64,000 nucleotides of DNA from Dehalococcoidia bacterium (GCA_965197585.1 OZ240215.1:2848001-2912000), one strand, 5' to 3'; shown: positions 11,864 through 42,249, numbered from the stretch's first letter. The notes: generated from the letters alone by a model not told the origin. Numbers and translations: made by a program.

Positions 11864-11865
11864 CC

Positions 11866-12198: not shown

Positions 12199-12233
12199 GG
12201 TGTTACGCCGTCTTTATCGGGACCAGGCCCTCA

Positions 12234-12512
12234 TCATACTTGACGAGGGAACCTTTCCCATATTGCCAGCCATTCGTCACGGCTCATTGTGCAGTCCACG
12301 AATTGTCGTAACTGTCGGGAGGAGAGGCGCATTTGCCGTGCAATTCTACCCAGAAGCCATTTGGGAATCTGGCCTTTTGTACCGTGCGAGACTACGGTAA
12401 CCAAGCGACGTCCTCCACTTACAGTTCTGTAATAGCCTACGTGCCCACCTGAGCGGTCCTCATTCGCTTCGGCCTTGGAGACCAAAGCCCCCTGTAAGTC
12501 ACGGTAGTCCAC
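12234..12512 (-). CDS. HicA-like toxin, copy 1
   Basis: Basic; SGGH..VSHGTKGQIPKWLLGRIARQMRLS. Confidence 0.6.
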   Translation of the reverse strand: MDYRDLQGALVSKAEANEDRSGGHVGYYRTVSGGRRLVTVVSHGTKGQIPKWLLGRIARQMRLSSRQLRQFVDCTMSRDEWLAIWERFPRQV

Positions 12513-12514
12513 CT

Positions 12515-12847
12515 CTAGGCGAGCATTTCCTCAAGTAACTCCAAGCACCTATTCGAGCAAGGATCCAATTCGTCCTTGAATTTTCTTAGGGAGAGCCTGA
12601 CGTCCCCGAGGATATACACCAATTCATTCATGGCCTCTTCCTCCGTAGTCCCCCAACCGAACTGGTATAGACATTCGACTTCGACGGTGGCGCCCCAACC
12701 TTCCAGCGTTTGTTCAACCTCCACCGGTAGGTCGGATTTCAGCTCATAACACTCGCCGCGTCGGCCTTTGGGCAGCACCTTCGTGTACCGCGCGAGGATT
12801 TCGGGTTCGTCGTCCGTGTCAGTGACGGGTTTGGTAGATTCGATCAT
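12515..12847 (-). CDS. HicB-like antitoxin, copy 1
   Basis: MIESTKP start shared with copy 2; FGWGTTEEEAMNEL. Confidence 0.6.
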   Translation of the reverse strand: MIESTKPVTDTDDEPEILARYTKVLPKGRRGECYELKSDLPVEVEQTLEGWGATVEVECLYQFGWGTTEEEAMNELVYILGDVRLSLRKFKDELDPCSNRCLELLEEMLA

Positions 12848-13008
12848 GGTGGGGCCTCTGGGTACGGGAACGTGTACGGGGCAAGGGGTAGATGCGTAGG
12901 GGATATTCTTCACCCGCATTGGGCGCGGTGTCAAGAATTGTCTTGCTCCGCCCACGTGCTCCCACCCGCCCACCTTTGGATTCCAGCCTGCGCAGGAACC
13001 CCGGACTT

Positions 13009-14997
13009 CTACACCCCGCCGAGATGAATGGTCTGCACGTAGCGCGGGCCCCGTGGCCCGACGGCGTACCGGGTATCGAGGCCCAGGACCCGTCGTCTCG
13101 CCGCCGCTAGTCCAACTGTGGGGTCAGTCAGCTCTATGACATCGTATAGCTCTTGGCCAGCGTTGACGGGCACGGTGATGCTGCCACGGCCTGGGTGGAT
13201 GGCAATGCGGCGGGCCTCGGAGTGGGCGCGGGCGTCGGTCTTTTCCTGGGTGTCGAGGGTGACGTCATGAACGTGGATGGGTCGGTCGAAGAGGGCGGGG
13301 AAGTCCGACCAGTTGGAAAGATCGCTAGTGTGGTTGGAGCCGAAGACGATAGCCCTACTGTGCCTGGGTACCGGGTCAATATATCGAGCCTCCAGAATCC
13401 CGTGCCCCGAGCCGTAGATGTAGGATCTTTCCTCGGTGGCTGAGGGAACCTTGAGAACGAACCCGTCGCTGGATGTCCCGAGCAGAATGTCGGGGACGTG
13501 GGACATTAGCCGTTCAACGACCATGTCCAGGGGCTCCGATTCCTCGACAAGGAACTCCGGTCGATGATTGTTCAGGAGAAAGTGGTCAGGGTGAGTCACG
13601 AGCTCGAAACCTGCCCGGGCCAGTACCGACCTGAGAATCTGAAATAGGCTGGCCTCCCCGGCGGCCCAAATGCGTTCGCGCCGGGCCTGCTGCCAGGCCA
13701 GGAGGCCCCAGCCACCCGTGGCGCGGACTATCAATGTCGAGGAGGAATCGGTACGGCGATGCTCCAACCCGTCGATCCACACCGGGGCTCGCGGGGAAGA
13801 TTCCCTCCCTGATGCGGTCACATAGCCTAGCCCGATCCTTATCTCCGACCCCTTGGTCAGCAGAGCTAGGTCCCCCTCACCGGGACGCGAGTAGCGCCCA
13901 TCGTTGTTTCGAAGTTCTATACGCCACGTGGTCTCTCTCGCCGACTCTTCACCTGTGAGGGAGACCACGTCCCGGCTCAGGTCCAGGGGCGGGGGGTTGA
14001 GGGGGGCCGACCACACGACGTTGGCCGTCGAAAGCCATGCGTGGCTCGCCGTGTGGCCGATAGCCAACCCGTGCGCCGTGTCCAGGTCGAACGCGGCGGG
14101 TTCACGCCACAGGTTGTCGAGGAATAAGGCGGAGGGCTGGGTGAAGGTGTAGAAAGGGCGATTGTGTGCCCCGGTGACCTGCTCGATGAAGAAGAGCCGG
14201 TCGACGTCCGGATGGTCGATGAAAGGGGCCCGGAAGTCGTGGTCCGAGACACGCTCGACCTCGGTGACGGGCCTGAGCGCCGACCACGTATCAATGGTCT
14301 GGGCCGCTCCATCGCCGAAGACCGTGCTCCACACGCCGCTTTTCCTGCCCGTCGAGTCCCGGCCCGCCACGGCCACGTTCCAGTCACCGTTGTAGTGAGC
14401 GGCGACCCCATTGATTTGGGAAAGGGAGTTGGACCAGATACGGGGAGAGCCCCAACTGCCGCTCGAACGCCGGATGGCGTATAGGCCGGAGTTGACCAAG
14501 GCATAGAGAAGGAGGGCCGAGCCGTCTGGCTTGAGGTCGGCGGCCAGCCAGGTAATGGGTGAGGAGGCGGTGGTCACATAGACGGCCTGTCCGAAGGTCG
14601 CTCCGCTGTCAGCGCTGGCCCGAACGTATAGGGTGCGCCTGTTGCTGGACACCGAGAACAGGAGCACGTCCGCCCCGGCAGAGCAGAGGGCCACGTCACC
14701 ATCCCTGGACGCTGGGCCCAATGAGACCCAGCGTGTGAAGTCAGAGGTGGGGGAGGGGTTGGGCACTCGTTGGACGTAGAGGTTGTGGCTGTTCGTGGGG
14801 TCGACGCGGGCGCGGATCATCGCGCCGTCGACGGGGAAGGTCAGGGCGTGAGGCCCCTCGGCCTCCGATCCCGTATGGAGCCGCTCGAACCGTAGCCGGG
14901 CTATGCCAGCCATCCGGTCCAGGGCTTCTACTCTGACCCAAGGCTTCGCCGAGGACGACCTCTGGGCACGGAGGAGGGAGTTGGATAACGGCCTCAT
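13009..14997 (-). CDS. Putative phage-like tail/baseplate-hub protein (beta-rich N-terminus with Asp-box, hub-like C-terminus)
   Basis: 662 aa, last gene of the capsid operon; RASADSGATFG Asp-box; C-terminal ELYDVIELTD...RRVLGL; call is mainly contextual. Confidence 0.55.
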   Translation of the reverse strand: MRPLSNSLLRAQRSSSAKPWVRVEALDRMAGIARLRFERLHTGSEAEGPHALTFPVDGAMIRARVDPTNSHNLYVQRVPNPSPTSDFTRWVSLGPASRDGDVALCSAGADVLLFSVSSNRRTLYVRASADSGATFGQAVYVTTASSPITWLAADLKPDGSALLLYALVNSGLYAIRRSSGSWGSPRIWSNSLSQINGVAAHYNGDWNVAVAGRDSTGRKSGVWSTVFGDGAAQTIDTWSALRPVTEVERVSDHDFRAPFIDHPDVDRLFFIEQVTGAHNRPFYTFTQPSALFLDNLWREPAAFDLDTAHGLAIGHTASHAWLSTANVVWSAPLNPPPLDLSRDVVSLTGEESARETTWRIELRNNDGRYSRPGEGDLALLTKGSEIRIGLGYVTASGRESSPRAPVWIDGLEHRRTDSSSTLIVRATGGWGLLAWQQARRERIWAAGEASLFQILRSVLARAGFELVTHPDHFLLNNHRPEFLVEESEPLDMVVERLMSHVPDILLGTSSDGFVLKVPSATEERSYIYGSGHGILEARYIDPVPRHSRAIVFGSNHTSDLSNWSDFPALFDRPIHVHDVTLDTQEKTDARAHSEARRIAIHPGRGSITVPVNAGQELYDVIELTDPTVGLAAARRRVLGLDTRYAVGPRGPRYVQTIHLGGV

Positions 14998-15033
14998 GCT
15001 AGGAGTTCTCCGCTGCGGTCGATGTCAGGCTGC

Positions 15034-15690
15034 TCATACATTGACGGTCTCGGCTTGAGCAGCACCACTTCGTGCGCCGTTGGGCGCCGCCTGGGGTTGG
15101 CTCAGGCGGCGCGACTTCATCCGTCGGGGGCGCCCGTGCCTCGCCAGCGCCCGATAGAAGACGTTCAACCGTTCCCGGCCCCATATCATGTAGTCCCGCC
15201 ACACCGAGTCGCCGCCGGTGTTCAGCCGATTGATGGTGAAGCCTGACATACTGTGGGCCGCGTACCCCGAGGCCCCCGTCACCAGTATGTCTTCCAGGGG
15301 CGAAGGCACGGTCGAAGACAGGTAGTCTAGGGTGTGGAGCTTGCCGTAATAGACCACGGCCTGTTCGCCCTCGGCCGGGACCCGTTCCACCAGTAGGGTC
15401 AGCGTGTCTCCCCAGACCCGGAACTCGGTGAAAGTGGGAGGGGACTGACCGGCCGGGTACTCGACGGAATCGACGAGCACGAGGCCGGTCAGGGAGGAGA
15501 GATCTATGTCCCGGGAGCCAGCGGTCGCGCTGAGCGTGGCTTTGTCTTCCACGGGGATCGCCAGGCTCATCTCCCGCAGGGCGTGGAATATGTGCCGGTC
15601 CAGCTCGGCGCTGGCCCAGCGGAAGCCGACGGCGTCTTCGTCGTGCAGGTCGGTGCGGACGCGGGCACGGATTTCGGTGAGTGTGGTCAT
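15034..15690 (-). CDS. Putative head-tail adaptor/connector
   Basis: MTTLTEIRARVRTDLHDED...RWASAELDRHI resembles phage adaptor N-termini; directly follows the capsid gene. Confidence 0.6.
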   Translation of the reverse strand: MTTLTEIRARVRTDLHDEDAVGFRWASAELDRHIFHALREMSLAIPVEDKATLSATAGSRDIDLSSLTGLVLVDSVEYPAGQSPPTFTEFRVWGDTLTLLVERVPAEGEQAVVYYGKLHTLDYLSSTVPSPLEDILVTGASGYAAHSMSGFTINRLNTGGDSVWRDYMIWGRERLNVFYRALARHGRPRRMKSRRLSQPQAAPNGARSGAAQAETVNV

Positions 15691-15750
15691 GAGTTGTCTC
15701 CTGGTGCGGGGGATGCGATCTTCACGTTACTGATCTTTAGAGGTTCCATT

Positions 15751-15788
15751 CACCCTCACCCTAGCCCTCTCCCATCGAGGGAGAGGGG
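15751..15788. repeat. REP-like family A (CACCCTCACCCyAGCCCTCTCCC-N4/5-GGGAGAGGGG), representative copy
   Basis: Other copies near 22850, 23025, 23568, 24206, 34837, 36064, 44675, 45097 and degenerate at 63002. Confidence 0.9.
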
Positions 15789-15850
15789 ATTGGACGTCCC
15801 CTCCCCCATCTCTCGGAAAGAGTTTTGCGAGAGTGTAAGTGGGGCCCGGC

Positions 15851-16741
15851 CTAGTTCCGGACCCCGGTTAGCTTGGCCAGCTTGACGGTGCTGAAGAGGG
15901 CCACGGCTACGTACCACTTGACCCGGGTTCGGGTGGCGTCCTTAGTCTCCAGACTCCCGACCCGCTCCACCTGCAGGCCCGAGGGCCCCGTCAGCCCCGA
16001 CACGCCATCCTCCCCGAATTGGACCGCGTATACCGTCGAGGAGTCGCGGCTGGTGCCCGCTCTCTGTTCGTCGGATACCCAGTCGCTGATGCCTATAGGC
16101 ACGCCGTCGTAGAACTGCACCATCTGGCCGAGCATGTTGCGGTCGGTCTGTAGGAAGCCGCTGCCCGATGTGCGGGCAAGGGAGTTGAGCTTGCGCCGGG
16201 TCCTGCGGCTCATGATGAGAATGTGGGGCTTGCCGGACTTCACCTTGTCGATCAACTCATCCAGCTTGTCCAGGGTGAGGGTTGCCCCGTTGGCGCCCAT
16301 CGTGACGGTCTGGCCGGCGGGGGTCAGCTTGTCGATCCCGTCGAAGGACTTGTCGTTGGTGTCGATATCACCGTTGATGAAGGTGTCGTCAAACTTCTGC
16401 TGTACGGCCTTGGACTTGAGTTCGACGACGGCGGCCTCCAGGTCCTGGACGTTGCCTCGGGTGGCTGCGACGTAGTTGTCCACGTCGGCGTCCCCACCCA
16501 GAATCTTCAGAGTTGCGGTGACCTGGCTAAAGGTGGGTGTGGACTCGGCCCACGCGTCTCCGACGTTGTAGAAGGCGACGGTCGGGGCGGCATTCTCCCG
16601 GTTGTAGGTGAGAGAGTTGCCTACTATTTCGATGAAGGGCATGTGCTGGAGCACGGGGCTTTCGTTGACTATCGTCTCGATAACCCCGGACAGGAGCATG
16701 TCGTTGGACAGCTTGCTGGCCTCTGTTAGTGTCAATGCCAT
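15851..16741 (-). CDS. Phage major capsid protein (HK97-fold likely)
   Basis: MALTLTEASKLSNDML..GVIETI..SPVLQHMPFIEIVGNSLTYNRE; LKILGGDADVD; FINGD..SFDGI; TRVKWY; strong RBS AGGAGA. Confidence 0.88.
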   Translation of the reverse strand: MALTLTEASKLSNDMLLSGVIETIVNESPVLQHMPFIEIVGNSLTYNRENAAPTVAFYNVGDAWAESTPTFSQVTATLKILGGDADVDNYVAATRGNVQDLEAAVVELKSKAVQQKFDDTFINGDIDTNDKSFDGIDKLTPAGQTVTMGANGATLTLDKLDELIDKVKSGKPHILIMSRRTRRKLNSLARTSGSGFLQTDRNMLGQMVQFYDGVPIGISDWVSDEQRAGTSRDSSTVYAVQFGEDGVSGLTGPSGLQVERVGSLETKDATRTRVKWYVAVALFSTVKLAKLTGVRN

Positions 16742-16775
16742 TGTTTGTTTTCTCCTTGCTTATCGTGCGTTACGG

Positions 16776-17261
16776 CTAGCTTTTGTTTATTGCGTACAGG
16801 ATCTTTTCCCGGGCAGAGAGGCCCGAGAGGTCGGCTTCTCGGCGGGCGGGTGCGCCGGACGGGACCCGGTCTTCGGGGGTGCGGCCTCCGATGCGCGAAG
16901 CCACTTTCTCGACGATCTTCTTCGCCGACTCCATCGCGTCGTCCAGCTCTACGATTGTGTTTCCGCGAATGAGCTCTTCAGGCAGGTCCGGGGCGCTCAC
17001 CATGAGGGCGATGCGGTAGCGGCCCACGGCAAAGTCGATCTGATGCCGCATGCCGTCCAGTTCCGTCTCCTTCTCGGCGACCAGGGCATTCAGCCTCTCG
17101 ACTTCTAGGGCGTCCCGGGAGGGTTCCTCTGCGGGCTCCGGGCTCGGGGTCTTGCCGCCGATAGGGGTCTCGGGTGTGGGGTCATGGGGTAGTGCAGGGT
17201 CATAGGACGGTGCAGGATCGTGGGGCGATGTGGGATCATGGGGCGGGGTTGGGTCGGGCAT
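16776..17261 (-). CDS. Putative capsid scaffolding protein
   Basis: Pro-rich PHDP repeats, coiled coil, C-terminal VPSGAPARREADLSGLSAREKI; immediately upstream of the capsid gene. Confidence 0.6.
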   Translation of the reverse strand: MPDPTPPHDPTSPHDPAPSYDPALPHDPTPETPIGGKTPSPEPAEEPSRDALEVERLNALVAEKETELDGMRHQIDFAVGRYRIALMVSAPDLPEELIRGNTIVELDDAMESAKKIVEKVASRIGGRTPEDRVPSGAPARREADLSGLSAREKILYAINKS

Positions 17262-17292
17262 GTGGTCTCCTTAAGTGAGTGATTTGTGGCGA

Positions 17293-17340
17293 ATAATAGA
17301 ACATACGTCCTTTTACAGTCAAGGGGTTCATGTCACTTTT
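17293..17340 (-). promoter_or_regulatory. Capsid-operon promoter: AAAAGTGACA-N8-TTGACT-N18-TATTAT with a LexA-like box
   Basis: -35 at 17317-17322, -10 at 17293-17298, AGAACATACGTCCT at 17298-17311; same layout as 26362-26409. Confidence 0.75.
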
Positions 17341-17478
17341 GGGAGGTGTTGGAAGGCGGAAAGAGATTGCGACACATCCCTCACGGCGGTATGGTCAGGC
17401 CTACCATTCCCGGTCCGCTGGCACTATATTCATGAGTCATAACAGAGGACATGCATTGACGACACACCATCCAAAGCA

Positions 17479-17679
17479 ATGAAACTTCACGTGGACCGGA
17501 AAGCGTATGCCCTGTATTTGCGTCTGGACGATTCCTTCATCGTCGAGTCGCAGGAGGTCTCGCCGGGTGTGGTACTCGACTACAACGCGGCCAATGAGGT
17601 CGTGGGAGTCGAGATGCTCGGGCTTTCAAAGCGGTCGTTGGACGTGGACCTCTCGGCATTGCAGTTTGAGACGGTGTGA
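17479..17679 (+). CDS. DUF2283-family small protein
   Basis: MKLHVDRKAYALYLRLDD..ESQEVSPGVVLDYNAANEVVGVEML. Confidence 0.85.
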   Translation: MKLHVDRKAYALYLRLDDSFIVESQEVSPGVVLDYNAANEVVGVEMLGLSKRSLDVDLSALQFETV

Positions 17680-17723
17680 GCGGCAACTCGCGATCATGGC
17701 CACTTCAATATACCTTCCCCACC

Positions 17724-17762
17724 CCCCACTCATACTTCGACGGGCTCAGCACGAGCGGCCCC
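17724..17762. repeat. REP-like family C (CCGCTCATACTTCGACGGGCTCAGCACGAGCGG and variants), representative copy
   Basis: Other copies near 17806, 17883, 23078, 24130, 26668, 31201, 31956, 41689, 45142, 46872, 46955, 47030, 61386. Confidence 0.85.
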
Positions 17763-17948
17763 GCCCAGCCATTTCCTTTTCCTTTACGCGTGATGCCCAC
17801 TCACACCGCTCACCCTGAGGTACTCGAAGGGTCGAGCGGAGAGGCGCAGACCTGACCGCTTCAACAGACCTTCCCCCACCCCCCCACTCATACTTCGACG
17901 GGCTCAGCACGAGCGGCCCCGCCCTCCTCCTCGTCAAAGGAGCCCCAT

Positions 17949-17975
17949 GGAACAAACCCGACCCCCCACCCGTCT
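17949..17975 (+). promoter_or_regulatory. Putative autoregulatory ECF promoter GGAAC-N17-CGTCT
   Basis: Matches the typical ECF -35/-10 pattern about 70 bp upstream of the ECF sigma gene. Confidence 0.6.
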
Positions 17976-18047
17976 TTAGAAGTGAGAGTCGGGAGGCGGA
18001 AGCTTTCGGCTTTGCTGACGCGGTGTATGCAATCGTATACTGCCTGA

Positions 18048-18647
18048 ATGTCGCCTCCAGAAAGGATGTCGGAGCCGGAAGAGGCCCTTATTGCCCGGAG
18101 CCGGGACGGGGACGTCGACGCCTTCAACCAGATCGTGGAAATGTACCAGCGACCCCTCTACAACATGGCCCTGCGCATGCTCGGCGACGCCCCCGCCGCA
18201 GAGGACGCGACCCAGGACGCCTTCTTTTCGGCCTTTCGGAACATCGGACGGTTCAAGGGCGGAAACCTGAAGTCGTGGCTGTTCACCATAGCGGCCAACG
18301 CCTGCCGGGACGTGCTCAGGTCCCGCAACGTGCGCCGGACCGAGTCCCTGGATGCGGAGGACGTGACCATTGATCCCCCCTCCTCCACCGAATCCCCGGA
18401 GGACTATGCCGTCAGGCGGGAGATGGGCCAGAGCATCCAGCAGGGGCTCGACTCCATCCCCCACGACCAACGTCTGGCCGTGGTGCTAATAGACGTGCAG
18501 GGCTTCGGGTACGAGGAGGCCGCGGGGGTAATGGGCATATCCGTAGGTACTGTGAAATCCCGCCTTAGCCGGGGGCGAGCCCGGGTCAGGGACTTCCTTA
18601 GAGACAGGCCGGGCGTGCTGCCCGCCAGGTACGGGAGCGGGGCCTGA
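18048..18647 (+). CDS. ECF RNA polymerase sigma factor
   Basis: AEDATQDAF, WLFTIAANACRD, YEEAAGVMGISVGTVKSRLSRGR. Confidence 0.95.
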   Translation: MSPPERMSEPEEALIARSRDGDVDAFNQIVEMYQRPLYNMALRMLGDAPAAEDATQDAFFSAFRNIGRFKGGNLKSWLFTIAANACRDVLRSRNVRRTESLDAEDVTIDPPSSTESPEDYAVRREMGQSIQQGLDSIPHDQRLAVVLIDVQGFGYEEAAGVMGISVGTVKSRLSRGRARVRDFLRDRPGVLPARYGSGA

Positions 18648-18651
18648 TATC

Positions 18652-19626
18652 GTGTTAGAAATGCTGAAAAAGATATTCAATCGGGGGCACGGGCGCTTCC
18701 TGGATATACTGTCGGATCACGTCGACGGTGAACTGCCGGAGGCGGAGCGGATCGTGCTGGAAGCGCACTTGCAAGGCTGTGACTCGTGCACCGAGGAGCT
18801 GGAGTCGCTGAGGGCAACGGTCCAGATGCTGCGCCGGATGCCGGAGGTCGAGGCCCCACGCTCATTCAGGATAGCCCCGGCCGCCGTAACCGCTCCTCCC
18901 CCTCCCCCCAAGAGGCCCGTTTTCCTGTGGACGATGCGTGTCTCGACGGCCATGGCGGTGGTGGCCTTCACGGTCATGGTCGCGGGCAACGTGACGGGGT
19001 TATTCGAAGGTGGGGGTGGGGACGGGGAGAGAGCGGCCTCGGAGGACGAGACGGCCTACGACTCCCCTGCTTTTAGCCCGACTTCCACGCCTGCTCCGAT
19101 GATGGAAGATGAGCCAGAGGATGCGATGATGGCTCCGACTCCTCAGGCAATGATGGAAGCTGAGCCGGACATCATTCCAAAGTCCACGCCAATGATGATG
19201 GCCGAACCGACCGCCACAATGGAATTCACCGCCATGCCGGAGCCTACGGCTATGCCGGACGAGGAAGCTGAGAGCAATAAAGCGGCGTTTACTCTCGAGG
19301 GCGACGATAGCTGGGTTGCCGACGCGCCACTCGTCGACCCCGAGCCGACCCCAGCACCCGCACTGACGGCGACTTCCAGGCCGAGGCCAACCACAGCCCC
19401 AATCCCCACGCTCATGCCCAGGGCAACGCTCGTCCCTACAATGGATTTCAGGACGAGGCCTGATCCCACACCGACGCCCGAACCTTGGGCGTGGGCTTCA
19501 TCAGAGCAGGACGATGGTGGAAATGGGGTGGTTCTTGGGCTGGAGATTGGGCTGGGGATCTTGGCGGCAGGGCTGGCACTGGGGACGATTTATCTCACGT
19601 TGAGGCGGCGGCGGGGGGTGGTTTAG
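18652..19626 (+). CDS. Zinc-binding anti-sigma factor (zf-HC2) with TM helix and Pro/Thr/Met-rich extracellular region
   Basis: LSDHVDGEL...HLQGCDSC (HxxxCxxC); TM segments; coupled to the sigma gene. Confidence 0.9.
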   Translation: MLEMLKKIFNRGHGRFLDILSDHVDGELPEAERIVLEAHLQGCDSCTEELESLRATVQMLRRMPEVEAPRSFRIAPAAVTAPPPPPKRPVFLWTMRVSTAMAVVAFTVMVAGNVTGLFEGGGGDGERAASEDETAYDSPAFSPTSTPAPMMEDEPEDAMMAPTPQAMMEAEPDIIPKSTPMMMAEPTATMEFTAMPEPTAMPDEEAESNKAAFTLEGDDSWVADAPLVDPEPTPAPALTATSRPRPTTAPIPTLMPRATLVPTMDFRTRPDPTPTPEPWAWASSEQDDGGNGVVLGLEIGLGILAAGLALGTIYLTLRRRRGVV

Positions 19627-19712
19627 GGGAACCATCACCTCTTCGAAGGATCCCGATCTCTACCGTCGGGAGCGCGGTTTGAGCGGTCCATGTCTTGCGG
19701 ACCTGGAGTTGT

Positions 19713-20156
19713 CTAGTGGTGGTTGGAGGGCAGGTTGTCGTTGCCGTCGAAGGTCCGCAACAATTCTTCGTAAGCTTCTATACGGGAGGTGTCTCCACTC
19801 TCACGCGCTTTAGCTAGAGCACGCTGAATGACTTTTCGTGCTTCGGCACGGCCCTCGGCACGGCGTTCCTCTCGTATCCTCTCCAACCATTTCTCGGTCA
19901 GAACCATGGTAAAACTCCCTGCTTCCGCTGCAATCATGCTTATTGTAGCAGAGCCGATTGCCAAAGATCCGGCGTAGCTCAAAATGTTGACTAGCACGTT
20001 TAAAGGGGACTCCGCACCCCTCACACCCTCCAAGGATTCGTTGGCTGCCACTACCGACATACCGATTATGAACAGGACGAAGAAGGCAAGGAAGTAGAAT
20101 TTCTTAGTCCTAGGCGCAACGGTCCATATGGACTCACGTTCGTTGCTATCAGGCAC
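19713..20156 (-). CDS. Hypothetical membrane protein
   Basis: Two TM segments followed by REERRAEGRAE tail. Confidence 0.6.
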   Translation of the reverse strand: MPDSNERESIWTVAPRTKKFYFLAFFVLFIIGMSVVAANESLEGVRGAESPLNVLVNILSYAGSLAIGSATISMIAAEAGSFTMVLTEKWLERIREERRAEGRAEARKVIQRALAKARESGDTSRIEAYEELLRTFDGNDNLPSNHH

Positions 20157-20360
20157 TTACGCATGCCTGGCCAGCGATTTGCTGTGACACATCAATATCC
20201 GATTTGTTTGAATGCCCCAAAGGCTTGCGTTCACCGACTGCTACTGCATTTTTTGGGGCCACTTTTTTGCAAAGCATAGAACCACATCGATTGGACTATA
20301 TGTCAGTCTTTCCTTAGAAATTGAGTCTAGCACGTAAGAATGACTCATCTCAATCATTCT

Positions 20361-20551
20361 CTATTGGTGAGGATGGTTTCTCCTCCTCACGAGAACCAAC
20401 TCCCTATCAGGGTCCTCGACGCCGAGGTTAGACACGGCACGGCGTCGGCTGTGGATGCCGGATCGCACCAGCGTCTCTTCGTCCTGGACCAGGCGGCTGC
20501 GGTCCTGGGGCAGGATCGGGCCCCAGAGGACTCGGGGGTGGGCGGGGCCGA
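20361..20551 (-). pseudogene. Displaced duplicate of the portal gene 3' end
   Basis: About 150 bp near-identical to 21510-21659 (GPAHPRVLWGPILPQDRSRLVQDEETLVRSGIHSRRRA.SNLGVEDPDREL) with a different tail. Confidence 0.9.
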
Positions 20552-20750
20552 CGATGAACGCTATCCCCATGACAACGCTGCGAGGTTGTTCGGGTTCCCC
20601 AACTAAACGGAATCCGTAGCTTGGCGGTCGGGGCAGGTGAGGTCACATCTTCTGGGAAGTCGTCCATGAACGGCACAACACGCGGCTGATCGTCCTACTT
20701 CGCCCATGGTTGGCGAGCGTCTCCAGTCACTAGCGCAGTTGGCGCCGTCC

Positions 20751-21185
20751 CTACGCTTCCTCGCCTAACATGTAGGCGCCTTCGTCCCAAACCTCCTGTC
20801 GCCCGCCTGGTGTCCAGTTTACGATAATCGCCGTCAGAGGCTCGCTGCTGGTTACCCGCATCGCGTGGGACATACTGGGAGGGCAATATGTCACCGTTCC
20901 AGCCTCTGCCGTAAAGGTCTCGTCTCCCCATTCACATTCGGCCGTTCCACTCATAATAATGTATATCTCCGGCCTCAGATGCGCGTGGGCGCCGTAGTAC
21001 GTCCCCGGGTCCAACTTGAACGCCGTCGCAGCGACGTCCATATCTGATATCCCTCCATCCCGGCCAATAAGCGGCTTCGCATACATCGCCTTCAACAACG
21101 ACTGGGGGTAGTTGCTGTACGAAGGCATTTGTTCAAGCTCATAGTCCTTGATGTAGTACTTTCCCTTTTTCTCTTTCGCCATCAT
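20751..21185 (-). CDS. Cupin-domain protein
   Basis: HAHLRPEIYIIMSG...PPSMSHAM cupin metal motifs. Confidence 0.85.
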   Translation of the reverse strand: MMAKEKKGKYYIKDYELEQMPSYSNYPQSLLKAMYAKPLIGRDGGISDMDVAATAFKLDPGTYYGAHAHLRPEIYIIMSGTAECEWGDETFTAEAGTVTYCPPSMSHAMRVTSSEPLTAIIVNWTPGGRQEVWDEGAYMLGEEA

Positions 21186-21466
21186 TGCACTCCTTTACGA
21201 TTGGTGCTGTCACTTCAGAAAAACTATCGGCCTCATGCCGTGGAATTAAGTGGCAAAAGGCTTCTCAGTTTTGCGAAATTCCCTCAAATCATCGTGTGTT
21301 TTTTGCGGGTCGCCGATAATTGTACGAAGCTCCTCAGCGCGCATGCGTACCTCCATGATTCAGTTTCTCCCGGTCCCCAACAATCGACAACTGAAGGCCG
21401 CCTTGCCAAATGAGCAAAAGTCATAACTCATTCACCAGTCCCATCTTAGCAGATGAGGAACAGAGA

Positions 21467-22792
21467 TTACGTCTCAGCGGTGTCAGTCTCCTCCCCCACC
21501 AGGGCCAGCTCCCTATCCGGGTCCTCGACGCCGAGGTTGGACATGGCACGGCGCCGGCTGTGGATGCCGGATCGCACCAGCGTCTCTTCGTCCTGGACCA
21601 AACGGCTGCGGTCCTGGGGCAGGATCGGGCCCCAGAGGACTCGGGGGTGGGCGGGGCCGAAGTCCAGGCCCTTGTGCTGCTCCAGCACCTTGAGAATCAT
21701 GCGCCCCCGCCTTTCGTAGACCGACGTTCGGATCAGCCTCTTGCGCCGGACTTTCTGGACCAGCGGGTTCAGTTCTATGTCCAGCGCCACGCCGGAAAGG
21801 CCACGGGCGTTGTCTCCGAAGCTGGGCCTCGGAGATTCCGAGAGGTCGTGGAGGGCGCGGTAGACCAGGTCTATGAACTCGGTGTGGAGCCGGACTCCGC
21901 CGCCCTGCAGCAGGTCCAACAGGTAGGCCCGAGAGCTTTCCGGGACCTCCCACACGGCCCCCGGCTGCACCGTTATGTCCTGCGCATCCTCGATGTTTTC
22001 GAGCACGGCTATCGGGTTGCCGGACAGCTCCAGGATCATGGAAAGCTGGGAGAAGGCTCGGTTCAGCTCCCGGGCGGGCTCCATGATGGCCGGAACGTCG
22101 GACACGCCCCAGAAGCGCTTCGGCTCACGGATGTTGGGGAACACGACGAATGGGATGAAGCCGTAGGGGTTGGGCCGACGCTGGCGCCGCGCATTGTCGA
22201 TCCATATCTCGAAGGAGTCAGCAGTCCAGACCTCGATGATGGTGGAGTCGGAGCGGCTGTTCCCGGCCGCCGAGGCCCGGGCCCCGACGCCGTAGATGAG
22301 GCTGACTTCGTCAGGGGAGAGCTTGTAGCGGCTGGCCACCCGCCAGACCCGGTTCACGTCGTCGCCGACCCACCAGACGAAGATGCCCTGGACGTCGGGT
22401 GCGGAGACACGGACGCGCTCCTCCTCGGCGTCCCAGGTAACCTTGTACACGCTGTCGCCCAGGACGGCGGCGTCAAGCTCGGTGTCGAAGTCGAGCTGCT
22501 GCAGGTCGTTGTCCCTATAGGCGGCGGCGAGGGCGTGGGTGGCTTCCTCGGCCTTGCGGGCCGACTCATCGGAGGCGTCGACCGGGTCTATGGAGAAACC
22601 GATGTCGGCCATGAGATATGAGGTGATCTTGTCGATGAAGGAGCGGGCGTAATTGAAGGTCAGGCGTCGCTCCTTTCGGCGGGTGCGGCCGGCCCACTGG
22701 GCGCCGCCGTAGAAGGCGAGGTTTTCGGAGTAGGCCCGGAAGCGGTCGGCGTCCAGGCGTTCGATTTGTTGGGGGAGTGTGAGGTTATTCAT
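21467..22792 (-). CDS. Phage portal protein (SPP1 gp6-like)
   Basis: 441 aa; FYGGAQW, LTFNYARSFIDK, NPYGFIPFVVFPN, WGVSDV, LSGVAL. Confidence 0.85.
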   Translation of the reverse strand: MNNLTLPQQIERLDADRFRAYSENLAFYGGAQWAGRTRRKERRLTFNYARSFIDKITSYLMADIGFSIDPVDASDESARKAEEATHALAAAYRDNDLQQLDFDTELDAAVLGDSVYKVTWDAEEERVRVSAPDVQGIFVWWVGDDVNRVWRVASRYKLSPDEVSLIYGVGARASAAGNSRSDSTIIEVWTADSFEIWIDNARRQRRPNPYGFIPFVVFPNIREPKRFWGVSDVPAIMEPARELNRAFSQLSMILELSGNPIAVLENIEDAQDITVQPGAVWEVPESSRAYLLDLLQGGGVRLHTEFIDLVYRALHDLSESPRPSFGDNARGLSGVALDIELNPLVQKVRRKRLIRTSVYERRGRMILKVLEQHKGLDFGPAHPRVLWGPILPQDRSRLVQDEETLVRSGIHSRRRAMSNLGVEDPDRELALVGEETDTAET

Positions 22793-23075
22793 GTTGGTCT
22801 CCTTTTGGTGGGGTCTTGATTGGCTGTTGTGTTGTGTGGTCTATACTCTCACCCTCACCCCAGCCCTCTCCCATCAAGGGAGAGGGGGTAAGACCACCCC
22901 CCACCCATGGATTCCCGTGTCGGGGCACGGGAATGACGGGGGGTTGGGGGAGTGTCAGGTTGTTCATGTTGGTTTCCTTTTGGTGGGGTTTTGATTGACT
23001 ATGGTGTTGTGTGGTCTATACTCTCACCCTCACCCCAGCCCTCTCCCATCAAGGGAGAGGGGGTAAGACCACCCC
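22769..23075. repeat. Tandem duplication of about 130 bp (22769-22899 / 22944-23075) carrying the portal RBS, start (MNNLTLPQ) and a family-A REP
   Basis: Direct alignment by eye. Confidence 0.9.
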
Positions 23076-23098
23076 TCCCGCTCGATACTTCGAGAGCC

Positions 23099-23497
23099 TC
23101 AGCATGAGCGGCCCCTCCGTAGGGATTTGGCATGGTTTTCTTTGAGGATGCGGTGGACCATGCTGCGGCTGAGGCCGAACCGATTAGCGAGGGCCACCAC
23201 CCCCAGCCCCTCCTCCCGCCTGACGGCCAGCAGGTCCCTGTTCCTCTTATCCTTGGCCTCGCGCCGGAGCCAGCCGGGATTGTCATGGCGGCAGCGGGGC
23301 AGTGGGCAGGCGAGACACTCGGGGGCGACTTCACATCCTTCGTCTCGGTAGTCGACGTGCTCAGGCATGGGGTCATCCGGGGATTCGGGATCGGGGTCCG
23401 GTTCAAGGTACAGGTCATCCAGGACCGGGTCGTAGCAGGCCAGTTCCAGTTCTTCAACAATAAGGTTGTCGTGGGCCAGTTCTTTGTAGTACGGCAT
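23099..23497 (-). CDS. Cys-rich HTH DNA-binding protein (putative regulator of the virion module)
   Basis: DEGCEVAPECLACPLPRC (4 Cys) followed by HTH GVVALANRFGLSRSMVHRIL. Confidence 0.7.
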   Translation of the reverse strand: MPYYKELAHDNLIVEELELACYDPVLDDLYLEPDPDPESPDDPMPEHVDYRDEGCEVAPECLACPLPRCRHDNPGWLRREAKDKRNRDLLAVRREEGLGVVALANRFGLSRSMVHRILKENHAKSLRRGRSC

Positions 23498-23620
23498 TTC
23501 GATGTTTGTCTCCGTTCAATTCGACGTGTACGGCTGTTCATTTGTTCCCTCCGCTCTGTCTTTGGGTCACCCTCACCCTAGCCCTCTCCCATCGAGGGAG
23601 AGGGGATATGACCCCCCACC

Positions 23621-23646
23621 AGATTCCTCGCGGGGCTTCGGAATGG
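23621..23646. repeat. REP-like family B (GTCATTCCGAGGCyCCGCGAGGAATCT, here reverse orientation), representative copy
   Basis: Other copies near 24041, 26581, 34744, 50574 (split by IS481), 52032, 52151; looser variants near 22910, 31266, 36583, 45190, 47098. Confidence 0.9.
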
Positions 23647-23949
23647 TAAGGGGGTTGGGGGAGTGAGGGAGATGACCAAGGTGGCGTATTGGCAGTGCGT
23701 GGTCCTGCCCCCGCTCGACCCTTCGATGCTCTCCGCCAAAGGCGGACTTACAGCATGGCGCACTTTCAGCTTGCTCAGGGTGAGCGGCCCCTCCCGGTGA
23801 TGGGTTCCCGTGTCGGGGCGCGGGACAGGCTCTAGTGCTTTCCCGTTGAGGGAGAGGGGACAGGGCACCCAGCCTCCGCCCCGGGGGAACCCTCACCCCC
23901 TTAATCCCCCTCTCCCTTAGGGCCATTAAGGGAGAGGGGGAGGGATGAA

Positions 23950-23991
23950 TAGGGGCATGCAGGTGCGCCAAAGCGCACCTGCATGCCCCTA
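23950..23991. repeat. Perfect 19-bp hairpin; covarying twin at 26511-26550
   Basis: taggggcatgcaggtgcgc-caaa-gcgcacctgcatgccccta versus agaggcatgcacctgcgc-caag-gcgcaggtgcatgcctct. Confidence 0.9.
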
Positions 23992-24273
23992 ATTCAGTAC
24001 CTGGGGAAGAGGAAAAGTGGTCAGTGAGCGGACAAGTCCCAGATTCCTCGCGGGGCTTCGGAATGGCAGGGGGGTTGGGGGAGTGAGGGGGATGACCAAG
24101 GTGGCGTATTGGCAGTGCGTGGTCCTCCCCCCGCTCATACCCTTCGACTAAGCTCAGGACATGCTTCGAGAGCCTCAGCACGAGCGGCCCCTCCCCCTTG
24201 GGGATCACCCTCACCCTAGCCCTCTCCCCTCAAGGGAGAGGGGATCCGACCCCGCCAGATTCCTCGGGGGGGC

Positions 24274-25662
24274 TTATTCATAGCCTTTTCTGAGGCGGCC
24301 GGAGGCGCGGCGGGGGATGTAGTGGGAGGCGTGGACTAGGAGGGCTAGGCTGGTGAGGAAGTCGTCGTGGCCCTGGGAGGGTTCGACGAAGAAGTTGATG
24401 GTCTGGTTGGGTCTTACTGTGCTCCTTGCTTTGGAGATTTGGGACCAGAATTCCGTGGAATCGGGGGAGCCGTCCGGCTTGTAGGTGTGGAGCCTGCCGG
24501 AGTTGATGGCGGCGAGGAGGTCGAATCCGAGATCCGACTTGCTGCGGGCGGTGAAGGTGAAGGGTTTGACGATGGAAGGTCCTATGGTCTTACGCAGGAA
24601 GGCGGCGACGCCTGCACCTACACCGGTGGCGTCGACGACTACTCTGCGGCATGCCCACACGTTTTTGAGGAGGTGAACCAAAGTCGAGAAGGTCTCTGTG
24701 TGGGGCTTACCTTTCCACCAGAAGTGCTCGACTACACTAAGGGTGGGGAGTTTAGACCCGAAGCCGTCGTCGAGGTAGCGGAGTTCTCCGATGGTGACGA
24801 CGGTGGAGTCTCTCAAGGGCTCGGAGGCCCTTATCCCGCGGTTGGCGGGGTCTTCCGATTCGCCGGCAAGGTCAATGCCGGCCACGTAGGTGCGCCCTAC
24901 GAGGGGCGCGTTCTTGCGGCTGTGGTTGCCCTGGAGGAGGGCCTGCCGGGTATTGTCCAGGAACCTTCCATCGTCGGAAACGGGGGTGAGGCAGTACTGG
25001 GAGAGGAAGAGGGGGTGATCGCCGCCGAGGCGTTGTTGTTCGGCCTCGACAAAGCGCTGGTAGTGAGGGTTGTGTTGGGCTACGGCCTGCCAGTCGAACT
25101 CGAAGTGGCGCTGGATACCGTCGGCGCGCTGGAGCTCAAGGTTGGACTGCTTGACCTGCTGGAGGAGGTCGTGGTCGTCCCAGGCGGTGCCGTAGTGGAT
25201 GGTGGTGACGTTGGAGGAAGCGCCCATAGGGACGAAATCCCGGTTGAATTTGTCGGGTGAGACGTCCTGGGACTCGTCGATTTCGAGAAGGAGGCTGGCG
25301 GTGTTGCCGACGACGTTGCCGGAGGGGTGGGCGCTGAGGAATAGCTGACGGGCGCGGCCGACGCTGAATAGGGAGGCGTGTTGGAATGCGTAGTGGATGC
25401 GTTTGCGTCGGAGGACGTTTTCGAGTCGGGATATGCTGATGCGGGCCTGGGGGTAGAAGGTGGGGGCGGCCTTTATGGCGGTTACGGCGGCGCGAGAATA
25501 GGCGGAGAGGAGGGCGGCTTCGATCCAAGCGGAAATCTCGTTCTTGCCGCCCTGGCGTGCGACCATGACGGAGAAGGAGAGGCCCTTGCGGTCCTGGACG
25601 CTATCGAAGACGGCCTCTGCTATTTGATACTGGTAGGGCCTGAGGGAGTGGATGGTTACCAG
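24274..25662 (-). CDS. Terminase large subunit (start uncertain; first ATG at 25566)
   Basis: LRPYQ adenine-binding motif, Walker A ARQGGKN, Walker B LLEIDE, nuclease YVAGIDLA...DST, VVVDATGVG, HDDFLTSLAL. Confidence 0.85.
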   Translation of the reverse strand: MVTIHSLRPYQYQIAEAVFDSVQDRKGLSFSVMVARQGGKNEISAWIEAALLSAYSRAAVTAIKAAPTFYPQARISISRLENVLRRKRIHYAFQHASLFSVGRARQLFLSAHPSGNVVGNTASLLLEIDESQDVSPDKFNRDFVPMGASSNVTTIHYGTAWDDHDLLQQVKQSNLELQRADGIQRHFEFDWQAVAQHNPHYQRFVEAEQQRLGGDHPLFLSQYCLTPVSDDGRFLDNTRQALLQGNHSRKNAPLVGRTYVAGIDLAGESEDPANRGIRASEPLRDSTVVTIGELRYLDDGFGSKLPTLSVVEHFWWKGKPHTETFSTLVHLLKNVWACRRVVVDATGVGAGVAAFLRKTIGPSIVKPFTFTARSKSDLGFDLLAAINSGRLHTYKPDGSPDSTEFWSQISKARSTVRPNQTINFFVEPSQGHDDFLTSLALLVHASHYIPRRASGRLRKGYE

Positions 25663-25874
25663 GGGGTGACTCCGGCGATGCCGAATACGAACTGGAGCAT
25701 GGCGGCGATCATGACGAAGAAGAAGAGGGTGTTGATGCGGCCCTTGAGCTCGGCGATCTGCTGGTGGAGCTCTGCGAGGCGCATTTCGAGTACGGCGTCG
25801 AAGGTGGACTCGGGCCGGATGGCGGGGGGCGCGGGGGTGTGAGGTTTGCGGCGGAATATGTTCATGATGTCCAT
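25656..25874 (-). CDS. Small coiled-coil plus C-terminal TM protein (possible holin-like or membrane anchor)
   Basis: 72 aa; RLAELHQQIAELKGRIN then LFFFVMIAAMLQFVFGI; TAATG coupling to the upstream gene. Confidence 0.6.
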   Translation of the reverse strand: MDIMNIFRRKPHTPAPPAIRPESTFDAVLEMRLAELHQQIAELKGRINTLFFFVMIAAMLQFVFGIAGVTPW

Positions 25875-26278
25875 TAGCAGTTGGTGTCCCAGGGGATTAT
25901 CTTGAGGCCGAACTTTTCGGAGGCGTCTTTGAGCATTTCCTCGATGCCGTCCTCGCCGGGGGTGTAGGAGCCGGGATAGATGCGGGCTTTGGCGGCGAGG
26001 GCGCGAATGAGGAGATCGAGGGTCTTGGTCAATTGGGCGTCCCTGTTGTGGACCTTCTTGGCTTTGATGAACTTTCTGAGACGGCTGCGGAGCATGGCTA
26101 TCTCTACGTCCAGGCCAGGGGCGCTTCGGGATTCGAAGGTCATTTCGCCCAGGTTTCCGGGGGTCTCGTCGGGGTGGGGGGAGTCTCCCGGGGCACCAGG
26201 CTCCTGGGCCTGGTCACCCCGGGGCTCCTTTGACTCGGGCTCCGGGAGATGGGAGGGTTTGCGGGTCTTCTTGGTCAT
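25874..26278 (-). CDS. Hypothetical protein, putative terminase small subunit
   Basis: First gene of the operon, upstream of TerL; helical GLDVEIAMLRSRLR segment; call is positional. Confidence 0.5.
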   Translation of the reverse strand: MTKKTRKPSHLPEPESKEPRGDQAQEPGAPGDSPHPDETPGNLGEMTFESRSAPGLDVEIAMLRSRLRKFIKAKKVHNRDAQLTKTLDLLIRALAAKARIYPGSYTPGEDGIEEMLKDASEKFGLKIIPWDTNC

Positions 26279-26361
26279 TTCGGCAGTCCTTTCGATCTTT
26301 TCGGCAATTCAGTTTGTTTCGGCAGGTGGTCCGGCCCTTGTGCGGGCCCGAGTCGGGGCGT

Positions 26362-26409
26362 AATATAGAATATGTGTGCTAGTTTAGTCAATAGGTCCGT
26401 GTCACTTTT
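26362..26409 (-). promoter_or_regulatory. Terminase-operon promoter: AAAAGTGACA-N8-TTGACT-N18-TATATT with a LexA-like box
   Basis: -35 at 26386-26391, -10 at 26362-26367, AGAATATGTGTGCT at 26367-26380. Confidence 0.75.
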
Positions 26410-26907
26410 TTGGGGGGGCTCGCAAACCGGGCTTGCGGGAGAAGGGGAACCCTCACCCCCTTGGTCCCCCTCTCCCTTAGGGCCTGTAAGGGAGAGGGGG
26501 AGAAAAAAACAGAGGCATGCACCTGCGCCAAGGCGCAGGTGCATGCCTCTAGTTTGGTACTGGGGGGGAGGCCCCACCCCAGATTCCTCGCGGGGCCTCG
26601 GAATGACAGAGTAAAGGGAGTTGGTTAGGGGAGAGGGGACGCGACGAAATGGCTGTGGTGGGCCGCTCCCGCTCGACCCTTCGACGGCGCTCAGGGTGAG
26701 CGGCCCCACCCACCGATGGATTCCCGAACGGGGTCGGGATCGATCCGCCTTAGGCGGACAGGCTCCCATCGGGGAGAAGGGGGGAGCGATCATTTTATAC
26801 GGGGTTTTAGAAGAAGAAGTAAGAACAGAGCATTACATTATGTAGATCATGCGATCTTTTTTATGGTAGGATCGGATCGAGCCTAACTGAACGCTTGATC
26901 TAATCCG

Positions 26908-27762
26908 GTGTGTGCCTTGGAGCCGTTCTGGCAGTCCGCCGACAACCTGTCCCGCCTGTACCTGGGCAACGCCTTCGAGGTGATGTCGTCGATACCGGAC
27001 GACTCCGTCGACTGCGTGTGGACGGACCCGCCGTACTTCCTTTCGAATGATGGGATAACGTGTGTGGCGGGGAGGATGGTGAAGGTGAACAAGGGGGAGT
27101 GGGACCGGAGCAGGGGGCTGGAGAGCGATCACGATTTCACCCGGCAGTGGCTGGAGGAATGTTACCGCATCCTGAAACCGGCGGGGACGATATGGGTGAC
27201 GGGGACTTTACACGTATACCTGAGTGTCGGGATGGCGATGCTGGAGCTTGGGTACCGGATACTGAACGATGTCCAATGGGAGAAGCCGAACCCGCCCCCG
27301 AACCTGGGGCGTCGATGCTTTACACATTCCACGGAAACGTTGTTGTGGGCAACCAAGGCCAAGAAGGGGAGCAAGCACCGGCACACGTTCAACTATGACG
27401 TTATGCGGGAGGAGAACGGCGGGCGTCAGATGAAGACGGTTTGGACGATGCCTCCGCCGGGCCGGGACGAAAAGAGGTTTGGCAAGCACCCGACGCAAAA
27501 GCCCCTGGCGCTGATACGGCGGTGCCTGAGGGCGTCCACCAACGAGGACGACATAGTTTTCGACCCATTCGTCGGCTCGGGAAGCACGGGGGTGGCGGCG
27601 TTGGGACTTGGGCGGAGGTTCTGGGGGGCGGAGTACCTAAAGGAATTTGCGGACCTGTCATATGCCCGGCTCACACCGGCGGACAGTTCAAGGAGTGGCG
27701 GGACTAGGGTTGACAGCGTCCATTGTCCGTCGATAGATTCCCGGACTGACAAACTCAACTAA
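26908..27762 (+). CDS. Beta-class amino DNA methyltransferase, DpnA/M2.DpnII-like
   Basis: DPPYFLSNDGITC..GRMVKVNKGEWD, WEKPNPPPNL, EKRFGKHPTQKP, DPFVGSG. Confidence 0.9.
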   Translation: MCALEPFWQSADNLSRLYLGNAFEVMSSIPDDSVDCVWTDPPYFLSNDGITCVAGRMVKVNKGEWDRSRGLESDHDFTRQWLEECYRILKPAGTIWVTGTLHVYLSVGMAMLELGYRILNDVQWEKPNPPPNLGRRCFTHSTETLLWATKAKKGSKHRHTFNYDVMREENGGRQMKTVWTMPPPGRDEKRFGKHPTQKPLALIRRCLRASTNEDDIVFDPFVGSGSTGVAALGLGRRFWGAEYLKEFADLSYARLTPADSSRSGGTRVDSVHCPSIDSRTDKLN

Positions 27763-42245: not shown

Positions 42246-42249
42246 TCGA

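Follow-up and report, generated by a model that had tools for sequence, protein, structure and literature searches.

The window analysed here (the whole 64,000-nucleotide stretch G000:C1:2848001-2912000 of a Dehalococcoidia genome that forms a single contig of 3.43 Mb, with a completeness score of 92%) encodes a module of nine phage-type genes for DNA packaging, a head and a short tail. This module is very probably domesticated, and its gene content and relatives make it probable that it is a phage-derived viriform kept by Dehalococcoidia as chromosomal genes and similar in design to a gene transfer agent (GTA). That it actually transfers host DNA is a candidate function, a serious possibility that falls somewhat short of being probable. 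Indeed, (i) phage-derived structural and packaging genes lie in the chromosome without recognisable integration or replication genes, as in GTAs, (ii) in relatives the halves lie 47-367 kb apart, where a particle may be unable to carry all of its own genes, although the module spans only 13.8 kb here, and (iii) portal, capsid, adaptor and hub are under purifying selection comparable to that on host neighbours. An earlier note on this DNA had proposed a GTA-like particle; a domesticated, split, selected, widespread and short-tailed non-prophage module is upheld by the present analysis, but strict co-descent at depth is not.

Gene content of the module

The nine genes extend from 13009 to 26278, all on the minus strand, at the places given in the earlier note, which had called them co-oriented. 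They are transcribed in the order TerS-like, 72-amino acid (aa) protein, TerL, Cys-HTH, portal, scaffold-like, capsid, adaptor and 662-aa tail protein, with host inserts between portal and scaffold-like genes (Table 1). Their GC content was rightly called host-like (0.57-0.65, against 0.48-0.65 over the whole window).

Table 1. Features of the module and of its inserts and spacers (positions in the window)
Feature	Position	Strand	Basis or remark
Promoter cassette 5' of TerS-like gene	26365..26409	-	AAAAGTGACA..TTGACT-N18-TATATT
TerS-like, 134 aa, hypervariable	25874..26278	-	assigned by position and conservation
72-aa protein, C-terminal hydrophobic anchor	25656..25874	-	stop overlaps TerL start; by position and conservation
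TerL, 462 aa, CTG start 25660-25662	24274..25662	-	motifs; nuclease-domain profile match
REP-type repeat spacer (contains spurious 213-aa reading frame)	23560..24270	.	repeat analysis
Cys-rich protein with C-terminal HTH (Cys-HTH), 132 aa	23099..23497	-	conservation and HTH leads
Portal, 441 aa	21467..22792	-	SPP1_portal 1e-14; phrog_64 2e-27
Cupin gene, host insert within module	20751..21185	-	family match
Duplicate of portal 3' end, 173 nt	20379..20551	-	93% identical to 21487-21660
ECF sigma and zf-HC2 anti-sigma, host insert	18048..19626	+	family match; linked to structural half in family f1 only
Promoter cassette 5' of scaffold gene	17296..17340	-	TTGACT-N18-TATTAT
Scaffold-like, 161 aa	16776..17261	-	assigned by position; no family match (Pfam, PHROG)
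HK97-fold major capsid protein, 296 aa	15851..16741	-	PHROG 212; PF05065
Head-to-tail adaptor, podovirus (T7 gp11 / SU10) type, 218 aa	15034..15690	-	SU10_adaptor; fold
Tail hub, 662 aa	13009..14997	-	gp27/gpD fold by AlphaFold2 model

The major capsid protein matches phrog_212 over residues 1-296 (E 9e-75) and PF05065 (Phage_capsid; 2e-12, 47.5 bits against a cut-off of 24.2), and it is the sole Phage_capsid match in the whole genome; the portal is present as one full-length copy per genome. Searches of Pfam and PHROG gave no match for the TerS-like, scaffold, 72-aa, Cys-HTH and 662-aa proteins of the window. The genes that the earlier note had labelled TerS-like, small transmembrane protein and scaffold are conserved, but these names follow from position and conservation. 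Indeed, the TerS-like gene is kept 5' of TerL in every TerS-TerL cassette of the genus (with a weak Atlas lead to T5 TerS, 0.83), the 72-aa protein retains 39-52% identity in other genera, the scaffold-like gene is kept immediately 5' of the capsid gene in relatives and the Cys-HTH gene is kept between TerL and portal across the class. A Cys-HTH homologue (L188:2895-3200) matches HTH_23, HTH_7 and Sigma70_r4, and there are Atlas leads to HTH_23 clusters. The repeat analysis bears out the REP-filled spacers; two supposed open reading frames (ORFs; 23573-24214 and 26275-26793) were rejected as genes, being read-through of REP-type repeats present in tens to hundreds of copies genome-wide.

TerL gave weak PHROG matches (8e-5) and no match to a Pfam terminase model; a profile built from 18 TerL sequences matches the solved TerL nuclease domains 5tge and 5m1f (E 4e-4 to 9e-4). 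Its invariant motifs are a Walker-A-like ARQGGKNE (with N at the position usually held by S or T), ExDExQ, DLAGE, DATGVG and GHDD, so that the window protein has both the ATPase Walker motifs and the RNase H-like nuclease domain of a large terminase. The intact motifs reported earlier are therefore confirmed, but the 430-aa gene model given with them was too short by 32 codons. The TerL frame is open 5' of the first ATG and the 32 extra residues (..LRPYQ..KGLSFSV..) are conserved in all relatives; of the 21 genus cassettes, 16 start TerL at a TTG that overlaps the 72-aa stop codon and 5 at a CTG (among them those of the window and of its nearest relative G005 and the portal-linked copies of G001 and G008). 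Four of the eight portal-linked TerL copies start at CTG and the remainder at TTG. Because of these conserved residues and of the start position in the genus cassettes, TerL was re-placed to the 462-aa frame of Table 1. Translation from CTG by coupling to the 72-aa gene would be a plausible, weak route. The gene does not look abandoned, since its dN/dS against G005 is 0.23.

Tail proteins

As modelled, the tail is short and is made up of an adaptor of the podovirus type and a single hub, which is gp27-like and carries an inserted propeller. The AlphaFold2 model of the 662-aa protein (built with 15 homologues; pLDDT 92, pTM 0.88) matched 7aef_q (3e-16) and 1wru (1e-14) in Foldseek, and VIA-align aligned 300-320 residues with hubs of the gp27/gpD/Mu gp44/VgrG type (Z 24-25.6). 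The hub fold is formed by residues ~8-40 and 337-662; between them, at residues ~42-336, a six-bladed beta-propeller is inserted, whose nearest structures are fucose lectins (Z 25.9) and sialidases (Z 24). The sequence SADSGATF at residues ~129-136 is Asp-box-like.

The adaptor gives a borderline match to SU10_adaptor (PF24175; E 1.3e-6, 29.4 bits against a cut-off of 27), and its AlphaFold2 model (pLDDT 82) matches short-tailed-phage adaptors over the whole protein, namely those of KHP30 (7wmp_m, 2e-7), cyanophage A4 (9k09_d, 8e-7), crAss001, SU10 (7z47_A, 3e-5), N4 and T7 (gp11, 6r21_M, 6e-4); the match to the RcGTA neck (6te8_B) is weaker (E 4e-4). Foldseek comparison of the 662-aa and 218-aa proteins, suggested in the earlier note, has thus recognised both folds, and the single tail-like protein described there, and the short-tailed rather than the tailless of the two designs that it had allowed, agree with an adaptor and one hub as the sole tail parts found.

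In a profile search of the genome, scored 92% complete, no murG was found and murC scored no more than 18.6 bits; Dehalococcoides lacks murein. Since the host is apparently murein-less, the absence of an endolysin is expected and is not a defect. A propeller-bearing hub suggests a route for DNA delivery into cells without a murein wall.

Locus architecture in the window and in relatives

Family matches agree with the earlier statement that host ECF sigma/anti-sigma and cupin genes split the module. The inserts between portal and scaffold (17262-21466) comprise the ECF sigma/anti-sigma pair, a 147-aa membrane protein and the cupin gene. The duplicate of the portal 3' end (beside the cupin insert; Table 1) marks the scar of the insertion or rearrangement that split the module. 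One flank carries an MFS transporter and an M60 peptidase, the other an N6/N4 methylase and a PLD/DpnI-type nuclease, followed by SelR, HIT and HD genes. No integrase, protease, tail tube, tape measure, lysin or primase was recognised in the flanks with Pfam, nor were att-like features found; with a single integrase as query, no integrase homologue was found near the module in its own genome. Profile searches of the whole genome for a tape measure (PF10145), a tail tube (PF04630), a sheath (PF04984) and a further capsid gene found none. The absence of integrase, protease, tail tube, tape measure and endolysin genes asserted earlier therefore holds for the flanks and, as regards tube and tape measure, for the whole genome. 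Lacking an integrase and being interrupted by host genes, the window module is not a prophage; with these inserts, and with split loci in relatives, the integrase, switch and replication genes of a functional temperate prophage do not come together in one excisable unit.

The address of the module is conserved through family f1 (MFS beside the hub gene, HIT/HD beside TerS), and HIT/HD genes flank the module in another family too (G035). The synteny anticipated in the earlier note is thus present through the family. In relatives, the module is usually divided between two or more loci far from each other. Its halves are separated by 367 kb in G001, by 170 kb in G037, by 66 kb in G059 and by 47 kb in G016, and they lie on separate contigs in G030. 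Among the 48 loci in which the capsid gene has 8 kb or more on both sides, the portal lies within 7 and portal or TerL within 9; among the 68 that have 4 kb or more 3' of it, the capsid gene is followed by the adaptor in 57 and by the hub in 53. TerL, Cys-HTH and portal stay linked in relatives. Elsewhere, the genes that recur beside the module have housekeeping roles (enoyl-CoA hydratase, gyrB, L25, TilS, CobS/CobT/CobO and a ComM-like ATPase).

An ECF sigma gene is found at 8 of 80 loci, and in G001 it stands beside the scaffold gene though the portal half is 367 kb off. The ECF sigma pair was considered as a regulator of the module and is not claimed as such, its linkage being limited to family f1. 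The ComM-like ATPase (Mg-chelatase family) lies ~5.4 kb 3' of the capsid gene in 10 of 80 loci (L120-L199), which may be chance linkage; in other bacteria, proteins of the ComM type have a role in DNA uptake.

Distribution, descent and selection

When 61 genomes of class relatives were searched for capsid, portal and TerL matches, the capsid gene, which is single-copy, was matched in 37 (full-length and open in 30 of these), and portal and TerL in 43 each. Identity declines with kinship, from 88-96% in the genus to 73-76% in the family and 53-73% in the class. In a species-level scan (one genome per species), at least 568 of 598 pattern matches encode a relative; the best 80 of these matches show 69-96% identity and their titles are all of Dehalococcoidia or other Chloroflexota metagenome-assembled genomes. 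In one genus of the same class with closed genomes of 1.7-1.9 Mb, the capsid gene is present in 6 of 6; in the two of these genomes examined, Cys-HTH, portal, scaffold, capsid, adaptor and hub are contiguous and TerL is elsewhere. In a sample of the phylum (301 genomes, capsid threshold E 1e-20), 34 genomes matched, of which 15 belong to other classes, at 46-55% identity. Two of six out-of-class loci examined have a lysis gene near the capsid gene (endolysin/amidase in G288, holin in G319). In these two loci (L216 and L215, respectively) the capsid shows 48-54% identity and the clusters are equally compact. Comparison of the hub profile with the large proteins beside out-of-class capsid genes (hhalign) gave probabilities below 1%.

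Co-descent was analysed in the 25 genomes having full capsid, portal and RpoB. The capsid plus portal p-distance tracks that of RpoB (Pearson 0.86; Mantel 0/2000), with paired values of 0.026/0.006, 0.12-0.14/0.10-0.12, 0.27-0.29/0.24-0.25 and 0.33-0.47/0.34-0.39. Module and RpoB trees have 10 of 22 splits in common, including 10 of the 11 RpoB splits with bootstrap of at least 98, and the module alignment does not reject a tree constrained to the RpoB splits of at least 95 (delta lnL 27, p-AU 0.18). The congruence of trees proposed as a check is therefore obtained for all but one of the strongest splits, but not fully at depth, as weighed below.

The dN/dS values were estimated for the window copy against seven relatives, one of which (G011) gave values for TerL, portal and capsid only. 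Within the genus they are 0.06-0.15 for the portal (0.29 against G010), 0.05-0.15 for the capsid, 0.17-0.21 for the adaptor (0.41 against G010), 0.13-0.17 for the hub (0.43 against G010) and 0.23-0.37 for TerL (0.16 against G011). They are 0.20-0.38 for the scaffold, 0.26-0.32 for Cys-HTH and 0.18-0.46 for the 72-aa protein, and the TerS-like gene is the exception among the module genes (0.75-1.04). Neighbouring host genes gave 0.05-0.41 in the same seven comparisons, and dS is similar for module and host genes. Neutral evolution, which the earlier note had set against a domesticated module, is not seen for portal, capsid, adaptor and hub within the genus.

Promoter cassettes and the TerS-TerL cassette family

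The sequences 5' of the TerS-like and scaffold genes match each other, each consisting of AAAAGTGACA, TTGACT, 18 bases and TATATT or TATTAT. The earlier claim that each half has its own matching promoter is correct as to the match, but both promoters are copies of a genome-wide cassette whose core motif occurs 47 times, or 60 times when the last base is left free. Of these 60 copies, 16 have an ORF of at least 100 aa starting within 200 bases: 8 TerL-fragment pseudo-ORFs, 3 TerS-like genes, 1 scaffold gene and 4 others. The promoter type is therefore not private to the two halves, because it is common to the terminase cassette family and its debris.

The cassette (26365-26409 and 17296-17340) is of the sigma-70 type and reads AAAAGTGACACGAACCCCTTGACY, ~14 bases, TGTACTATATT and a stereotyped leader. 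Most copies have no ORF of at least 100 aa within 200 bases, and they could be a mobile promoter or a small-RNA gene family; an Rfam search of three repeat loci gave hairpin matches that were all below threshold. The LexA-type box GAACN4GTTC occurs 0 times in the window, against 1.1 expected by chance. As to expression, the 23 runs listed, from 11 studies, included none of RNA.

A second, orphan cassette of TerS, 72-aa protein and TerL is present among ordinary host genes (G000 C1:1117829-1119830), with identities to the window copies of 77% for TerL, 90% for the 72-aa protein and 41% for TerS. The genomes of the genus contain 2-5 full TerS-TerL cassettes, and in the TerL tree the portal-linked copies are mixed with orphan ones; over 190 pairs, the median pairwise identity is 40% for TerS versus 79% for TerL. 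TerL matches number 11-30 per genome in the genus and 1-3 in other genera. In G000, about 17 loci carry degenerate TerL pieces of 65-78% nucleotide identity, covering codons ~162-344 (matching window positions 24570-24973). Such loci (e.g. C1:3022210-3023283 and C1:1577788-1579155) lie inside pseudo-ORFs beginning MSRTSLHRPRR; some have internal tandem duplications and several stand directly behind the promoter cassette.

Other features of the window

Two small ORFs 3' of the hub gene (11585-12973) form a tandem duplicated pair (62% and 58% between copies) conserved in the genus only. The window also encodes several restriction- or defence-type sets: an N6/N4 methylase with a PLD/DpnI_C nuclease (26908-28536), Vsr, HNH and C5 methylase genes (54017-55963), an AAA_21 ATPase with DUF4276 (59088-60952) and an N6/N4 methylase with a ThaI-type nuclease (61427-62886). 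Seven acyl-CoA dehydrogenase paralogues, one of them truncated, are encoded in 39514-57042; this run is broken by genes for a DUF559 nuclease and an IS110 transposase, by a GIY-YIG gene and by a restriction-modification set. A match to the archaeal PaREP1/PaREP8 family (36129-36533; E 1.5e-14) is unusual for a bacterial genome.

Proposed mechanism and alternative readings

In the GTA-like viriform proposed here, a host-type sigma-70 promoter cassette would drive each half, both halves standing behind copies of the genome-wide cassette. The scaffold and the HK97 capsid protein would assemble a head on the portal, and TerL, its translation coupled to that of the 72-aa membrane protein and its action guided by the TerS-like protein, would fill this head with DNA. 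A dodecameric adaptor and a trimeric hub would close the portal to give a stub tail, and the three lectin/sialidase-like propellers of the hub could bind a surface glycan of a murein-less recipient. The cargo would be mainly host DNA, as in a GTA, because a particle would presumably be unable to carry a whole module whose halves are up to hundreds of kb apart in relatives.

Several observations weigh against this proposal. Related capsids occur in phages of 41-117 kb, and if the head were so large, the contiguous 13.8-kb copy could be packaged whole. The CTG start of the window TerL may lower or abolish its translation, and there is decay in some genomes (a TerL stop in G010, frameshifts in G017, fragments in G014 and G015, a capsid stop in G022). 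The full RpoB topology is rejected by the module alignment (delta lnL 124, p-AU 0.0003), as is that of the module by RpoB; outside family f1 (15 genomes) the distances are weakly correlated (Spearman 0.18; Mantel r 0.39, 10/2000). Absences are scattered on the RpoB tree, with 12 changes against 15.4 when shuffled, as counted on an RpoB tree of 56 rows of which four had the wrong gene (probably the neighbouring rpoC). Finally, integrase-bearing relatives exist. Among 136 pattern-matched IMG/VR contigs, 117 carry hub relatives, in contigs of 4-27 kb with the same gene order. One of them (L257, 15 kb; capsid 57%, portal 54% and TerL 51% identical to the window) has a tyrosine integrase (PF00589, E 2e-27) and an HNH gene just 5' of TerS-TerL, with a TerS-homologous ORF before TerL, and another (L291, 13 kb) has an integrase-like match; L257 nests in the class clade beside G024 (SH-aLRT 93).

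The integrase-bearing relatives and IMG/VR contigs, the rejected RpoB topology, the decayed copies and the CTG start are what would be expected if the module were a grounded copy of still-mobile temperate short-tailed viruses of ~13-15 kb, spread by repeated infection and endogenisation, and if the window copy were a decaying or selfish remnant without host function. This explanation is considered unlikely. With one integrase as query, few loci had a homologue near the module (2 of 80 among the viral loci, 1 of 80 among the genome loci and 0 of 53 among those of relatives), and most module-bearing IMG/VR contigs, being fragments, are probably pieces of host DNA. Through genus and family the module keeps its address and the trees agree, dN/dS is low where RpoB differs by 25%, and split halves can neither excise nor be packaged together. 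L257 and L291 have the same genes in the same order as the window, whereas the window copy has neither integrase nor HNH and is broken by host genes and repeats. To judge from these relatives, a very small temperate virus with a short tail was probably the ancestor, and some mobile forms may persist; their persistence may be the reason for the deep incongruence with RpoB and is the main rival for copies other than that of the window.

Two other explanations start from parts of the module. A phage-interference or satellite-like island, making heads on infection to capture invader DNA or to borrow parts, as capsid-forming phage-inducible chromosomal islands (cf-PICIs) do, would account for the 2-5 full TerS-TerL cassettes per genome of the genus and their interleaving in the tree, and the divergence and high dN/dS of TerS would then reflect an arms race; a restriction-modification pair abuts the module (26908-28536), with other defence genes in the window. 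It is nevertheless decidedly unlikely, since the module has its own adaptor and hub and no need to borrow a tail, no integrase, primase or att-like features were found, and the cassette expansion is limited to one genus. A particle that transfers no DNA, such as a PBSX-like killer or a DNA-free shell using its lectin-like hub for adhesion or attack, is very improbable. The lectin/sialidase-fold propeller would suit it, and PBSX packages DNA yet acts as a tailocin (cited in the available text of PMC12946183), but TerL, portal and TerS-like genes are conserved together with head genes under selection, which indicates that DNA packaging matters, and no sheath or tube able to puncture a cell was found.

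The GTA-like viriform can be extended, tentatively and as something rather unlikely in its entirety, to a class-wide transfer particle of undescribed design (a podovirus-derived head with an adaptor and a lectin-bearing hub only), in which the TerS-TerL cassettes of the genus would start packaging at several sites, as in a programmable GTA resembling lateral transduction, and the promoter and TerL fragments would have spread as repeats. Murein-less Dehalococcoidia include abundant ocean and subsurface lineages, and if DNA is moved, the module would be a major unrecognised route of gene flow in largely uncultured bacteria and a second, independent short-tailed GTA design. Made of seven or eight proteins, it would come close to being the smallest known machine of the tailed-phage type. 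Few GTAs are known, and according to the available text of PMC12946183 most of the studied systems are in Alphaproteobacteria.

Comparison with known systems

The nearest isolated phages by capsid are PaMx11 / Ab18-like Pseudomonas siphoviruses and other isolates of PHROG 212, with ~41% identity over the full length, and all 287 records are below 60%. These are complete phages with genomes of 41-117 kb, unlike the window module. The cf-PICIs are chromosomal islands with their own terminase, portal, capsid and connector and no long tail; they are mobile, with an integrase, replication genes and att sites, and use the tail of a helper. The module differs from them in having no recognised integrase or primase, split loci and its own adaptor and hub. 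RcGTA resembles it in its chromosomal, integrase-less head and packaging genes, under purifying selection and at dispersed loci; these genes are kept vertically in RcGTA, and in the module such descent is seen through genus and family. RcGTA also has a prohead protease, and its siphovirus-like tail includes a tail tube, a tape measure and distal tail proteins. No such protease was recognised in the flanks of the module, nor a tail tube or tape measure there or genome-wide (PF04630, PF10145), in line with the earlier note's description of a gene set unlike that of RcGTA. Judging from gene content, the module would be an independent domestication in another phylum.

A literature search found nothing in print on the Dehalococcoidia module. 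The preprint 10.64898/2026.09.15.751708 was considered as a related system and set aside, its available text dealing with unrelated, filament-like IME1 elements. According to the available text of PMC12946183, FpGTA of Faecalibacterium prausnitzii is a podovirus-like GTA encoded at two loci 125 kb apart and near-ubiquitous in its host group; its particles have been seen, with packaged DNA of 8.4-8.9 kb, and its second operon encodes a baseplate, a fibre, a receptor-binding protein, a holin and an endolysin. The module is known from its genes alone, its sole tail part beyond the adaptor is one hub and no lysin was found in its flanks. Like FpGTA, it belongs to bacteria outside the Alphaproteobacteria, has a compact set of TerS, TerL, portal, scaffold and capsid genes, is widespread in its host group and, in relatives, is usually divided between chromosomal loci. 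As likened by description, on the text available, FpGTA is the closest described system to the Dehalococcoidia module.

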